The notes under the pieces were generated by a model. The model searched no databases and was not told where the DNA came from. It saw nothing but the letters and a program-made list of their open reading frames with translations. From the IMG/VR virus record IMGVR_UViG_3300028653_000010: a stretch of DNA of 64,000 nt, one strand, 5' to 3'. Both the position numbers and the translations under genes were made by a program. Positions 42,578 to 47,257 of the stretch are shown here, one piece after another (position 1 is the stretch's first letter; each line of letters starts with the position of its first letter). Origin of the DNA: a virus.

Positions 42578-43187
42578 TTTAACGCCCTTTCAAGCTTCGT
42601 AGGAAGCGGTTGGCGCCAGTGGTCATCCGGCTTTGCCTTTTAAATGGCAGTTGCCCAACAAATTCCCCACTTGCCTAATAATTAACCGGCTAGACGAACC
42701 AACCATTTAGAATGGTGATCTAACACCCACCCACTACTCATATCTACCACCCCTGCGTTCATCAACAAGACTGAAGTTGCCGTACCAGACTTGGCCAGTC
42801 AAATTGCTTACAGAGCAACTGAAGGTCTGTCAGGAGTCCTCGTGACTCCCGAAGGTCTCGCTGCATTTGTAGAGAGTGGAGCTAGAGCTTTACAAGTACA
42901 TCCAACACTAAGGTTACACCGATACGTCTCGTTCCCCACGCACGAAAACTCTCATGCCCATCAATGCGGAGCGGAATGCCGTCGAGGGTGGTCAGGTGAA
43001 CCCATGGTTGCACTGTGAGAGTTACTAAATAGCGATTTGACTCAGAAAGCTCAACAGTTGCGTTATTGAGATGAACCCACTGACATGTATTTGGATCTAG
43101 GTATTCAACCGACATCCTGCATCCCTACTCGGTTTTGGTCAGTACGTCTAGGTATGGATAAAGTTCTTGTGAACTCAACTTAGAGCC

Positions 43188-43418
43188 ATGTCAGAAATCA
43201 ATCATTTACCTGAACACCATCTCAGTCCACGAATCATTGGTTACGAAGAAGTTCGGTCAATAGACCTGACTAGGGGTGAGGACGGGATATACATCGACTC
43301 GAAACCGGTTGAATCTAGCGAACGAGTCTTCCTCGACTTACAATTTCAAGACGGTGCAGCTATCAGAGCTGAAGTTTTATACCAGGATTTCCTAACTCAT
43401 AAGATCTACGAGAGTTAA
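43188..43418 (+). CDS. hypothetical protein (transposon cargo)
   Basis: 76-aa ORF. Confidence 0.45.
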   Translation: MSEINHLPEHHLSPRIIGYEEVRSIDLTRGEDGIYIDSKPVESSERVFLDLQFQDGAAIRAEVLYQDFLTHKIYES

Positions 43419-43441
43419 ACCTCAAAAGATAGTGGGCTAGT

Positions 43442-44053
43442 TCACTCGATGATCTCGACATGAGTGAACTTGACTACCGCCTTTTTGGCGCCCCCTTGTA
43501 TTGTAGTGCTCGTCATTGATCCGTCTTCCGTAGAAAAATTCTTCGTGTCACCTGCCGGTATCGATCCACCGAGAGCAAACGTAGTAGAGCCGAATTTACC
43601 TCCGTTATCGTCATACCACTCGACGTCCCCTGAGAGCCCACCAACTGGAAACTTAGAGCGATTCAGAACACTCACCTTGATGAGTTGCCGGTAATCGTTG
43701 ATGATACCCTTGTTGTAATACTCAAGATTGCTCGTGATTAGAAAGCTGTCGGGTGTATCTCTCAACGCTTTCTTTTCTCGTTCCAGAGCTTGTGTTTGAG
43801 AGGCTTTCTCTTGTTCCAATGCCTGAACTTGAGAGGCCTTCTCTTGTTCCAATGCTTGTGATACGGCCTGCTGGACTTGTGCTTGAGAGACCTTTTCTTG
43901 TTCACGAGCCTGAGCTTGAGAAGCCCTCTCTTGTTCCAGAGCTTGGGTTACAGCTTGCTGGACTTGTGCGTCTTTGTCCTGTTTGCTTTCGCATTGACAT
44001 GCAACGCCCAGAGTTGTGATCAACACACATGTACGAAAGAGTTTTCCGCTCAT
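43442..44053 (-). CDS. lipoprotein with QALEQEKASQ repeats and C-terminal beta-sandwich (cargo)
   Basis: lipobox-like LGVAC; tandem repeats; V.V.NRS...V.WYD..G...G.IPAG.TK.F. Confidence 0.65.
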   Translation of the reverse strand: MSGKLFRTCVLITTLGVACQCESKQDKDAQVQQAVTQALEQERASQAQAREQEKVSQAQVQQAVSQALEQEKASQVQALEQEKASQTQALEREKKALRDTPDSFLITSNLEYYNKGIINDYRQLIKVSVLNRSKFPVGGLSGDVEWYDDNGGKFGSTTFALGGSIPAGDTKNFSTEDGSMTSTTIQGGAKKAVVKFTHVEIIE

Positions 44054-44270
44054 GACTTACAATGCCTGCCTTTCGAATGAATATCTCAGAAAGGTCAGTG
44101 AATGAAAATGGGACTCTTACATTTTTTGGTGTCCCACCATGTGGTTATGGTGGTGTCATAGGCGCAATTACCAGGAAAATCAGCGGTGCTGAGTGTGTTT
44201 GTCTAATTAACGCCCCAAACCCCTTGACGGGCTGGCCCATACTGTCCTCCAGAATAGTCTGAATTCGCTA

Positions 44271-44540
44271 GCCAAGTCAATCGAGACCAGCGGCCTCTTG
44301 ACTTGGCAACCCCGGCGGGAAGAGGCTTGGGAAAAGCCTCCCAACTGGATCGGCCAACCCCCAGGGTGACCAACTAAAGATTCGGATCTCGTACAACCTG
44401 AGAAGCCCTGTCCATGGAGACCGGACAGCGTTCCTTCAAGTCGAAGAGGTTGGACAAGAGTTCTGGGCTGTAGAGCCAGGCTTAGCACCAGGTTTATTCC
44501 AACCCCAGTTCTTGGTAGTTGGATCTCAGGTCGCCGCTAA
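44271..44540. ncRNA. candidate structured RNA inside the transposon
   Basis: no credible ORF; several stems (GCCAAGTCAA/TTGACTTGGC, GAGGCTT/AAGCCTC, CTGTCC/GGACAG) and long-range complements. Confidence 0.35.
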
Positions 44541-44717
44541 CTACTTGAACTTCAACGGATCGATCAACTGGGTTCAGATATGCGGTAACGTCGAAGTGAT
44601 CCCGGAGACAGAAGCGGAACAAGAAGACACCTCACCTAACGGAGTCCTTGACCAGCCTTTGGACTTTCCGTTGTGACTTGAGTGCTGATACCTAAACCCA
44701 CATATTACGTCAATCTT

Positions 44718-44746: not shown

Positions 44747-44752
44747 CTAGGT

Positions 44753-45964
44753 ATGAGTAACGTAGAATCGAATCTAAGCCCACGAGAAGAGAAAGGCTTA
44801 CAGATAGCCAGCACGAGGCGGATCAAGAAGAATGGCAAGCTTTGGGTTGTCCCCAGCCAGTCTCACGGTGGCTCCTACGTTGTAGATCCCAAAGCTCACA
44901 GTTGCACCTGTCCGGACTTCGAAACCAGAGGGTGCACATGTAAGCACCAGTATGCCGTAGAGTTCACGAGGCATCGAGTCCTTAGATCAGATGGAACGAT
45001 CCTCACCACGGATACGGTTCGAGTAACTTACACTCAGGATTGGCCAGCCTACAATGCGGCCCAGACTCAAGAGAAGGAGGTGGTAGAGGCCCTTCTCAAA
45101 GGCTTGTGCGATGGGATCACCCAACCACCACAACAGGGTAGAGGCCGTCCTCGGTTGCCTTTAGGCGATATCGTCTTCGGTAACGTCATGAAGACCTATT
45201 CGACTTGGTCAGGGCGGAGAGCCTCGACTGACATTCGAGAATGCCGAGAGAAGGGCCATATCACCTGCAGCCCTCATTACAACACCTTGTTCCTTCACAT
45301 GGAGCAACCTGAGTTAGCCCCGCTGCTCAAGACTTTGATCGAGGAGAGTACTCAGCCTCTAAGGGCAGTTGAGACAACCTTCGCAGTAGACTCTACAGGA
45401 TTCTCAACTTCCGTGTACAACAGATGGTTCGATCACAAGTACGGACGGGAGATGAAGAAGGCCAAGTACCTCAAGGCTCATTACGCGGTTGGGACGATCA
45501 CAAATATCGTGACGGCCGTAGAAGTTACTCAAGGTGATGTTGCCGACTGTCCTGAGCTTCCTGGATTAGTACAGACAACGGCAAAACACTTCGATGTAGT
45601 CGACGTGTCTGCCGACAAAGCCTACTTGAGCTATGGTAACCTGGATGTGATTGCGGAGGTAGGTGCAGTTCCGTACATCCCATTCAAGATCAACTCGACG
45701 AGTGATGGATCGAAGCAATGGAGGAAGCTTTGGCATCTCTTCAACTACAAGAAGGATGAGTTTCTAGAGCACTACCATCAGAGGTCGAATGTTGAGTGCA
45801 CTTTCAGTGCGGTCAAGAGGAAGCTAGGCAGTGCTGTTCGATCGAAGATGTATGATGCCCAAGTGAACGAGATCCTCTGCAAAACCCTCGCCTACAACTT
45901 GGCTGTCCTCGTTCACGAGATGTTCGAACTCGGCATTGATCCTGTGTTCTGGCAAGCAGCATAG
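44753..45964 (+). CDS. DDE transposase (IS4/IS5-like) with N-terminal SWIM zinc finger
   Basis: CTCPDF..RG.TCKH (SWIM); AVDSTGF, SADKAY, YHQRSNVECTFS.VKR catalytic motifs. Confidence 0.85.
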   Translation: MSNVESNLSPREEKGLQIASTRRIKKNGKLWVVPSQSHGGSYVVDPKAHSCTCPDFETRGCTCKHQYAVEFTRHRVLRSDGTILTTDTVRVTYTQDWPAYNAAQTQEKEVVEALLKGLCDGITQPPQQGRGRPRLPLGDIVFGNVMKTYSTWSGRRASTDIRECREKGHITCSPHYNTLFLHMEQPELAPLLKTLIEESTQPLRAVETTFAVDSTGFSTSVYNRWFDHKYGREMKKAKYLKAHYAVGTITNIVTAVEVTQGDVADCPELPGLVQTTAKHFDVVDVSADKAYLSYGNLDVIAEVGAVPYIPFKINSTSDGSKQWRKLWHLFNYKKDEFLEHYHQRSNVECTFSAVKRKLGSAVRSKMYDAQVNEILCKTLAYNLAVLVHEMFELGIDPVFWQAA

Positions 45965-46158
45965 GCTCTGGCATCTAAGACACAGGAGTGATTCTGTCTC
46001 GCGTCGGTGTAGAAGTACCCTAAACCATTTATTGACGAGCAACGGTATGAAGAAGAAAAAGTACTACATCACCAGGGGTACATGGGACGAACTCAAGAGT
46101 TTGCCAAACTTTCATGAGTTGCTTGCCGCCAAAGGACTTACTGAAGACGACTACATAG

Positions 46159-46461
46159 TTATGGAATATGTTCCCGTAGCCAAGCCTTCGTCCCTTCGGA
46201 AGCGTGGCTCTCGACAGGGGTCTGTAAAAGGGCGACGTGGTACTCATCCTGTTTCTCAATGAGCCCAAAGAGCCGTCTACTCACTCTGGCGGGACTATCC
46301 GTCGTGACAACCGCGTAGGTGGATTCTGATAGCCGTTGGTGTTCCTTGTACCCTTCAGTAATGTTGTCTCGGATCTTGTTCCGCCTTTGGTCAGCTTTGG
46401 TCTTTTCAGCCTCGGACTTATCTAGGGTGTTGACATCGTATGTGATGAGGTAGACAGGCAT
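46159..46461 (-). CDS. Cas2-like ferredoxin-fold small protein (cargo)
   Basis: N-terminal YLITYDV, later RLSESTYAV; no CRISPR array or cas1 nearby. Confidence 0.55.
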   Translation of the reverse strand: MPVYLITYDVNTLDKSEAEKTKADQRRNKIRDNITEGYKEHQRLSESTYAVVTTDSPARVSRRLFGLIEKQDEYHVALLQTPVESHASEGTKAWLREHIP

Positions 46462-46616
46462 AATTGGTAATGCTGCCTGTCCTCGTGACGTGAGTCAACG
46501 GGCTAGATGTGTGACAAAAGCCTACCAAGAATGAAAAGCAACGTTCATACTTGGATTAGCAGTCCTCAAGTTCTAAGTTGATTGGCCGTAGTACTGCGGG
46601 GAAGGGCCTTTGTACC

Positions 46617-47042
46617 ATGACAAAGTCACGACAGTTTACACTAGTAGCGTCAGCCTTTACACTCGCAGTCCTCGCATTCGCTCCAAGAGACATTCGTGCT
46701 CAAGGGAACACCAAAGTCCTCGTGGACGCTGAGTGGGTGATTGCTGCTGGTTCATACCAAGCAGAAGAATTTTCCACTTCCGGAGCCACTTTTCAGGCGA
46801 AGGTTGCGGGCTTGAAGCACACTGACAAGGGCTTCCGTGTACGAGTGGTAAATGCAGAAGATGTGACCTCTTGCACAGTTAAGGGTGGAACCTGTCGAGA
46901 GTTGGCCTCATGGACACAACCGCGTACAGCTGCCTTTACGAATACGGATCAGATCCCTTCGGGACGTTGGGCGTTTCTCGTTGAGAATAGCGAGAACATC
47001 CTGAACAAGATGACAGTCAGCGTATACCTAGCTGTCAACTAA
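46617..47042 (+). CDS. secreted hypothetical protein (cargo)
   Basis: signal-peptide-like N-terminus, beta-rich body. Confidence 0.55.
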   Translation: MTKSRQFTLVASAFTLAVLAFAPRDIRAQGNTKVLVDAEWVIAAGSYQAEEFSTSGATFQAKVAGLKHTDKGFRVRVVNAEDVTSCTVKGGTCRELASWTQPRTAAFTNTDQIPSGRWAFLVENSENILNKMTVSVYLAVN

Positions 47043-47257
47043 CAAGGGTTCGTTAGAAAACTGCAAGAGGCGGGCATCCAAGGTTTCCACCTTTATTGCG
47101 TGGAAATGTAAGCTGGTAGAGGCAGCTCGGCCTTTAGATTTGGGTTGCCCAACAATTCGTGATGTTGCCTTTTAAGTCCCCATGGTGAGGTATTTAAAAG
47201 GCAAAGCCTGGTCATCCCCCATTGGCCCTTCGAAGGTACAACACCAATTCGGAAGCG

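Follow-up and report, generated by a model that had tools for sequence, protein, structure and literature searches.

We analysed a 64,000-nucleotide stretch of DNA from the IMG/VR virus record IMGVR_UViG_3300028653_000010 (hereafter the window, meaning the whole of this stretch), which has a phage-like gene content, and within it an element at 42629-47208 that had been predicted from the letters to be an intact, cargo-carrying transposon with a SWIM-finger DDE transposase. The element is delimited by two copies of a 17-bp terminal inverted repeat (TIR), GGCTTTGCCTTTTAAAT at 42629-42645 on the plus strand and its exact reverse complement at 47192-47208 on the minus strand, both perfect, and each copy is abutted by a 9-bp target-site duplication, TGGTCATCC, found in identical form at 42620-42628 on the left and at 47209-47217 on the right. 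These are the repeats and the duplication that had been predicted, and they enclose 4,580 bp. Allowing up to 3 mismatches, a search of the 64-kb window found these two copies of the TIR and no others, where 0.07 matches were expected. With one transposase gene and two copies of the 17-bp TIR in that window, the element does not have the build of a composite transposon. Its G+C content is 0.492, compared with 0.508 for the phage.

Both ends extend inwards from the TIRs and carry copies of the motif TTGCCN4AA, giving six sites in the two ends, with 16 sites in the whole window against 6.2 expected. In the left end (42629-42700, plus strand), the TIR is accompanied by three same-strand sites starting at 42633, 42651 and 42671, which we presume to be transposase-binding sites. 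The right end (47141-47208, minus strand) combines its TIR and a minus-strand site at 47194-47204 with two plus-strand subterminal sites at 47145 and 47165, inverted relative to the terminal one. The subterminal repeats of the original prediction are real, namely GTTGCCCAACAA at 42650 and 47144 with an additional TTGCCTTTTAA at 47165.

The transposase gene lies centrally at 44753-45964 (plus strand) and encodes 403 amino acids, with a SWIM zinc finger at residues ~42-71 and an IS4/IS5-type DDE domain at residues ~96-385. Both predicted domains were recovered by Pfam, with DDE_Tnp_1 (PF01609) matching residues 207-383 at an E-value of 1.9e-21 and SWIM scoring 21.8 bits against a cut-off of 19.6. 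The protein carries the Y-x2-R-x3-E-x6-K signature (YHQRSNVECTFSAVK), and the CxCx9CxH finger as well as D213, D288, E348 and K355 were invariant across 39 aligned homologs. We compared the gene with that of a close relative on a Joint Genome Institute (JGI) metagenome contig (L014), finding 132 differences (the region being ~10% diverged), a non-synonymous divergence (dN) of 0.022 and a synonymous divergence (dS) of 0.53, that is a dN/dS of 0.04; the transposase is under purifying selection. Together with the perfect TIRs and duplication and the complete set of catalytic and zinc-finger residues, this bears out the description of the element as intact.

The leader of the transposase gene (44685-44752, plus strand) is kept from 44685 in a second close relative, located in a metagenome-assembled genome (MAG) labelled "uncultured delta proteobacterium" (L149), and from 44714 in L014. 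It contains a promoter-like sigma-70 site at 44719-44748 (TTGAGA, a spacer of 17-18 nucleotides and TAATACT), which is kept in all three close relatives (the window, L014 and L149). The transposase start has no Shine-Dalgarno spacing. Because the promoter ends 4-5 nucleotides before the ATG, the transposase mRNA may be leaderless.

Copies elsewhere and exchange of cargo

The transposase is flanked by two cargo bays, a left one at 42701-44684 and a right one at 45983-47134, and the same ends and transposase were found next to other DNA in L014, in L149 and in metagenome contigs, in agreement with the mobile, cargo-carrying unit of the original prediction. L014 matches the window over 44714-47208 at 94.5% identity and ends its match exactly at 47208, with an unrelated flank beyond. 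In two of the sequencing runs (X10 and X14), the L014-type copy was seen to have its left TIR and a 9-bp duplication of its own, GGCCCACCC, so that right bay, transposase and right TIR recur at a second site with a separate duplication, as in a transporter insertion sequence (IS). Contigs of public rhizosphere runs place each TIR, from 42629 on the left and up to 47208 on the right, next to at least three other flanks. Peat and permafrost runs with run shares below 0.2 were kept outside the comparison and were given no weight as habitat evidence.

L149, the closest copy found in a genome, shares only three stretches with the window: 42629-42695 in the left end (92.5% identity, with the similarity gone past 42695), the transposase with its leader at 44685-45956 (88% identity), and 47141-47209 at the right end, where the identity is 92.8% from 47141 on. 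These stretches are spread over ~7 kb in L149, with wholly different genes between them. Its transposase (L149:8001-9192) is split by small indels at 44784, 45359, 45847 and 45855-45856 in window coordinates, which may reflect either a decaying copy or long-read assembly errors. A further relative, P0002, is 77% identical and known from Logan only. One metagenome contig of run X10 fuses 42708 to 47161, skipping 4,452 bp; this join could be a miniature deletion derivative of ~130 bp or an assembly artefact at repeats.

Comparing cargo among these relatives, as had been proposed, we found the ends and the transposase conserved and the contents of both bays swapped. The borders between conserved and variable DNA coincide in the three elements, at ~42700, 44685-44714, 45957-45983 and 47135-47141, and metagenome contigs break at the same bay borders, those at the left end parting from the window at 42699 and 42708. 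The right bay differs between the window and L014 at 1 position in 1,152 bp, intergenic DNA included, compared with the transposase dS of 0.53, from which we infer a recent exchange of this bay between two diverged elements. Near-identity with L014 sets in 18 bp past the stop codon of the transposase and persists up to the inner edge of the right end. In distant relatives, transposases that are 90-92% identical accompany type IIG restriction-modification cargo that is only 29-44% identical. Recombination between co-resident elements would be the most economical explanation for this renewal of cargo.

A large family and its target sites

Homologs of the transposase number more than 6,776 after clustering at 90%, and their source label is only "transposase". 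At least 582 loci were found in GTDB species-representative genomes, almost all of them MAGs, with hosts in the Myxococcota (Polyangia), Acidobacteriota, Dehalococcoidia, Eremiobacterota, Planctomycetota and Aenigmatarchaeota. IMG/VR yielded 32 family loci, including loci on contigs of 452 and 619 kb. Neither the 72,556 plasmids nor the 50,697 phage records of curated collections contained a full-length match to the transposase; their only matches were to IS5-family proteins with 23-32% identity over the catalytic half. Three family members (L186, L190 and L208) lie on a single 122.8-kb IMG/VR contig; as their transposase DNA is only 66-72% identical, this contig has been invaded repeatedly by different lineages.

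We delimited relatives by searching the fetched loci for inverted ends with an adjoining duplication. This resolved 51 plus 13 relatives, all of which have GGCTTTG-type termini; their duplications span 8 to 10 bp and are nearly always 9 bp long. At 51 distinct 9-bp sites, the elements were 2,187-9,286 bp long, with a median of 4,367 bp. No compact IS of ~1.4 kb was present among the resolved relatives, although the search could have detected one. The asymmetry of the ends recurs in the family: a subterminal copy of the terminal 11-mer was found at the left end in direct orientation in 38 of 52 elements and in inverted orientation in one, and at the right end an inverted copy was found in 33 of 52, with ~0.3 expected from shuffled sequences.

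Every resolved member of the clade carries cargo, amounting to 0.7-8 kb per element, and the cargo of the relatives is rich in restriction-modification and defence genes. A Pfam search of 84 large cargo open reading frames (ORFs) taken from the resolved elements detected N6_Mtase (9), N6_N4_Mtase (7), Eco57I (6), Mrr_cat (4), NA-iREase1 (4), HSDR_N (3) and Methylase_S (3). The cargo also includes RhuM, an AbiEii-like ATPase, a SocA/Panacea antitoxin, an IrrE-type M78 peptidase, SDH proteases and three nested IS3 elements, and one 918-amino-acid cargo protein resembles the MAD2 methyltransferase of MADS at a score below the model cut-off. Many apparent conserved cargo clusters in GC-rich relatives were discarded as artefacts of antisense or overlapping ORFs. 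In 14 relatives, a small divergent gene lies ~250-320 bp upstream of the transposase (L050:7731-7952, L099:7757-7969, L117:7696-7911, L023:2952-3152, L124:7702-7905 and others) and encodes a Zn-ribbon protein, with the motif C-E-R-C-G-H-E-W ... C-P-K-C-K-S-P-Y-W, or a ribbon-helix-helix protein. This gene may be a regulator of the element; the element of the window has neither the Zn-ribbon nor the ribbon-helix-helix gene.

We then considered the sites of insertion. Twelve of 40 distinct sites were centred on a perfect palindrome of at least 7 bp, compared with 0.24% of control positions taken from the same loci (binomial p = 2e-22), a typical palindromic target being CCTCTCCC-N5-GGGAGAGG. All sites pooled gave the weak symmetric consensus T-nn-CC-n-Y-n-R-n-GG-nn-A. 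Target-site free energy did not differ significantly from that of flanking controls (p = 0.10), and the strict centred-palindrome test was used instead. In the window, the reconstructed empty site is a 91-bp spacer running from the stop codon of the gene at 47258-49084 (minus strand) to the start of the gene at 42260-42577 (minus strand), and in it an imperfect 10-bp hairpin has its loop inside the duplication, which agrees in spirit with the preference of the family.

Passengers and surroundings

The left bay contains three ORFs and, at 44054-44684, ~630 bp without a credible gene; no homologs of this bay were found among the ~200 loci of relatives compared. Two of its ORFs, encoding 77 amino acids (42882-43115, minus strand) and 76 amino acids (43188-43418, plus strand), had no homologs in any search. 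The third, at 43442-44053 (minus strand), encodes a lipoprotein-like repeat protein of 203 amino acids with the lipobox LGVAC, 87-nucleotide and 33-nucleotide tandem repeats, repeats of the QALEQEKASQ type and a C-terminal beta-sandwich resembling FxLYD/DUF2393 domains. The stretch at 44054-44684 had been predicted to be structured and non-coding, which is weakly supported: the folding z-scores of -1.5 and -2.0 on the two strands (44265-44580) are unremarkable, an Rfam scan of 42000-48000 returned nothing relevant, and the stretch is not conserved in L014 or L149, so that the data do not favour a structured RNA.

In the right bay, three ORFs encode proteins that are 100% identical in L014. A doubtful ORF of 71 amino acids (46047-46262, plus strand) overlaps by 104 bp, in convergent orientation, the gene at 46159-46461 (minus strand), which encodes a 100-amino-acid protein predicted earlier to be Cas2-like. 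Its AlphaFold model (predicted local distance difference test, pLDDT, of 96.3) was searched with Foldseek, and the best PDB matches were the Cas2 structures 4es1-3, 5h1o, 4qr0 and 7f84, with template-modelling (TM) scores of 0.5-0.72 and E-values down to 9e-5; the structural matches also include Cas2-like BPSL1038 and GhoS. The predicted fold thus confirms a stand-alone Cas2-fold protein. By sequence, the match to Pfam PF09827 falls below the gathering score (14.6 bits against a cut-off of 23.8), and PADLOC returned a weak Cas2 match and no other defence match among the passengers of the window. No Cas1 match was found among the ORFs of the element, nor any regularly spaced CRISPR-like repeats in a repeat scan of 42000-48000. 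A word-based homolog search with this protein retrieved only itself, and an exhaustive HMMER search retrieved a small family of Cas2-like proteins of ~100 amino acids with the motifs M-x-V-x-L-V-x-Y-D and L-S-E-S-x-Y-A; in 25 homologs, Y8 is near-invariant and D9 is present in most, the N-terminal beta-strand ending in Y-D. The longest contig encoding the Cas2-like protein measures 443,068 bp. The last ORF, at 46578-47042 (plus strand, probable start at 46617), encodes a protein with a signal peptide and a GOLD/PPC-like beta-sandwich. The earlier assignments of a lipoprotein and a secreted protein are both plausible.

The passengers had been said to carry no RYER tag, and R[YF][ES]R was absent from every frame of the element. 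Elsewhere in the window, six-frame translation gives 26 matches, about a dozen of them in a recurrent C-terminal form, and the absence of this phage tag from the element fits a foreign origin.

Next to the element, the gene at 47258-49084 (minus strand) encodes a phage protein of 608 amino acids with an HExxH motif (HELGH) and weak matches to an anthrax lethal factor-type domain and to peptidases (Pfam E-value 5.7e-4, PHROG peptidase); a zinc metalloprotease is its probable identity, and its homologs in two IMG/VR contigs are 43-57% identical. Farther away, a 142-bp relic at 236-377, similar to a miniature inverted-repeat transposable element (MITE), has GGCTTTGCCTCAAAAG at 236-251 and an inverted copy at 360-377 with a 2-bp insertion near its tip, and is flanked by the imperfect repeats CCTTTAAGC and TTTAACGCG. 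Its terminus GGCTTTGCCTCAAAAG also occurs in the relatives L001 and L025. This family terminus points to the relic being a second, older hit of the same family, in which case the phage would have been hit at least twice. A TnpB-like gene at 61710-63760 (minus strand), with a Cas12f1-like TNB domain (E-value 1.4e-13) and an adjoining ORF of 207 amino acids, suggests that another type of transposon (IS605/IS607-like) is present in the window. An IMG/VR scan for the 17-mer TIR returned nine single matches and no pairs, and these were taken as chance matches.

Relation to known elements and interpretation

The nearest known elements are those of the IS903 group. IS903 itself is ~1.06 kb long and consists of a single gene of ~300 amino acids. 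Like this group, the clade has an IS4/IS5-type DDE transposase with the YREK signature, ends starting with GGCTTTG (GGCTTTGCC here and GGCTTTGTTGAATAAATC in IS903B), a 9-bp duplication and a bias towards symmetric targets. For IS903B, GGCTTTGTTGAATAAATC is documented as the terminal repeat together with a 9-bp duplication (PMC10569121), and for IS903 a palindromic target motif (PMC2577343, Table 1). The transposase contains the D, D and E residues together with Y-x2-R-x3-E-x6-K expected of IS5; the best NCBIfam model, the IS5 equivalog NF033579, is covered over positions 2-287 of 289 at 123.9 bits, below its cut-off of 140, and an IS903-type transposase from a Proteus plasmid scores 342 bits with the same model. 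The IS903-type ORF (locus L177) has 278 amino acids and aligns only with residues 177-382 of the window protein, at 29% identity. Departing from IS903, the clade has an N-terminal SWIM extension of ~95 residues, multiple asymmetric subterminal sites and cargo in every case: the window element, at 4,580 bp with four to six ORFs besides the transposase, is not a single-gene element of ~1 kb, and its transposase is not a finger-less protein of ~300 amino acids. Given the shared termini, the duplication and the NF033579 match, the clade is, as judged from these alignments, an offshoot of the IS903 group of IS5 and not an orphan, which lowers its novelty somewhat.

The kind of element is already known, being an IS5-family unit transposon or "transporter IS" (tIS), the ISfinder term for an IS with passenger genes between its inverted repeats. 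Such variants are described as occasional within otherwise compact IS families. The clade resembles them in having one transposase, short TIRs and passengers that are not related to transposition and move inside the same ends, and differs in that all resolved members carry cargo, in two bays flanking the transposase, and in that this cargo turns over faster than the transposase diverges. Benler et al., in mBio in 2021, are said to have described Tn7-like transposons as carriers of defence systems. The clade shares with these a variable cargo rich in restriction-modification and defence genes, and asymmetric ends with several transposase-binding sites; however, Tn7-like elements rely on the multi-protein TnsABCD/E machinery, span 10-100 kb and use attachment sites, whereas the clade uses one IS5-type protein, spans 2-9 kb and generates 9-bp duplications at many sites, often palindromes.

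A SWIM CxCxnCxH finger joined to a DDE transposase is also found in Mutator-like elements (MULE; MuDR) and in FAR1/FHY3. In MULE, the SWIM finger is C-terminal to an IS256-like catalytic domain. Here it lies N-terminal to a PF01609 domain of the IS4/IS5 type, which makes this a fusion independent of MULE/FAR1. Mu in plants typically has a 9-bp duplication as well (PMC2577343, Table 1). The insertion sequences ISPsy8, ISPpu9/10 and ISRm22, which target repetitive extragenic palindromic (REP) sequences, are compact. The clade is reminiscent of them in its insertion into extragenic palindromes or hairpins (Tobes and Pareja 2006, PMC1525189), but only ~30% of the sites of the clade are perfect palindromes. 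What appears new is the combination of a SWIM finger with an IS903-like core, obligatory two-bay cargo, cargo rich in defence genes and a preference for palindromic targets. We found no description of SWIM + IS5-type transposons in a literature search whose scope lay outside ISfinder and TnCentral, Krupovic et al. 2019 (PMC6563490) proving to have no bearing on them; homologs labelled "transposase", the score below the NCBIfam IS5 cut-off and this silence of the literature are consistent with the poorly described family of the original prediction.

Taken together, these comparisons lead us to read 42629-47208, with a probability of about 85%, as an intact unit transposon or transporter IS that belongs to a very large, IS903-like clade of the IS5 family, for which no description was found. 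Several points weigh against this. The element occurs once in the 64-kb window, and its target there is an imperfect, off-centre hairpin that does not fit the weak family consensus. Every clade member is known here as sequence, and the clade may already be catalogued in ISfinder or TnCentral. In the right bay, near-identity sets in just where the transposase gene finishes and not within it, a border that plain homologous recombination does not predict. No empty site was obtained: in four runs no contig passes from one flank to the other without 42629-47217, the two flanks joined together had no exact match in IMG/VR, and the proposed check for a single TGGTCATCC site thus came out negative in both. 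The insertion had been called recent; the perfect repeats fit this, but they alone bear on it, as no empty site was found, and recency is unproven. Excision and activity in the phage may at most be surmised.

The same evidence bears on three other explanations. It is unlikely that the element is a fixed, immobile and domesticated resident, kept by the phage for passengers such as a Cas2-fold nuclease or envelope proteins that would serve it in infection. The insertion is indeed present in every run bridging the junctions (X9, X10 and X13) with no empty form seen, its G+C content is like that of the phage and it sits cleanly between two genes. Domestication is, however, at odds with the perfect TIRs and duplication and with the intact transposase under purifying selection; moreover, the passengers lack the C-terminal tag recurring on about a dozen proteins elsewhere in the window, an identical right bay exists in another element elsewhere, and the distantly related phage contigs that encode a homolog of the neighbouring 608-amino-acid protein have no such element, although at 43-57% identity they are not true empty sites. 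Far less probable still is a smaller real unit, whether a compact IS at ~44685-47208 or solo ends or MITEs, with the outer TIR pair arising by chance or nesting. L014 shares only 44714-47208 with the window, and both the 142-bp relic and the X10 contig joining 42708 to 47161 might be read in this way. Yet there is no third TIR-like sequence near 44685-44714 or elsewhere in the window at up to 3 mismatches, which excludes a smaller "true" IS inside the element; it is the outer pair that the 9-bp duplication borders; in L149, the transposase is again enclosed by these two ends, there 7 kb apart; the resolved relatives all share this build; and in X10/X14 the L014-type copy was found with a left TIR and a duplication of its own.

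The position of the bay borders leaves room for a dedicated capture mechanism, which they might reflect, and we considered that the bays are filled by a cassette mechanism and not by ordinary homologous recombination, through site-specific capture at fixed borders (the transposase stop and the inner edges of the ends) or through end-skipping by the transposase. In its favour, the borders coincide in three elements, the L014 tract does not enter the 10%-diverged transposase and metagenome contigs break at identical borders. We nonetheless hold it to be improbable, since the four borders, read by eye, share no recombinase, integrase or repeat motif, the comparison covers three close relatives only, and recombinants that survive selection for intact ends and an intact transposase would likewise seem to break at the borders.

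Under the unit-transposon reading, and by analogy with IS903 and other IS4/IS5 transposases, the protein would recognise the terminal and subterminal TTGCCN4AA sites through the SWIM finger, the obvious candidate for DNA binding, and the region after it, and would bring the two dissimilar ends together. Its DDE site would cleave at GG/CC and join the ends to nicks staggered by 9 bp, as IS903 does, with symmetric or hairpin-forming DNA as the preferred target; in the window this would be a hairpin loop in the spacer that separates two phage genes. All DNA between the ends would travel along, and the bays would acquire new contents chiefly through recombination of co-resident elements, for which the ends and the transposase would provide the homology arms. 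The ~443-kb phage probably received the element from a bacterial host living in soil, the closest copy in a genome being that of the "delta proteobacterium" MAG, and the lipoprotein, the Cas2-fold protein and the secreted protein would be hitch-hikers.

More tentatively, and at odds that we would place well under one half, the clade may constitute a distinct and very widespread class of small two-bay shuttle transposons that are never empty, prefer defence genes, target hairpins and exchange their bays faster than their transposases diverge. Such a class would comprise thousands of transposase variants, found across Myxococcota, Acidobacteriota, Chloroflexota, Planctomycetota, Eremiobacterota, DPANN archaea and huge phages, and would be an overlooked route for defence and accessory genes between soil microbes and giant phages. 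If so, some of the traffic in restriction-modification and defence genes among uncultivated soil and sediment microbes would be due to one simple single-protein type of transposon, and the crossing of such elements into huge phages would provide a clue to the host of this one. The fusion of a SWIM finger to an IS5-type core would offer a tractable system for what SWIM fingers recognise, and for thousands of genes whose present label is only "transposase", the ends of the element could be defined and its cargo delimited.

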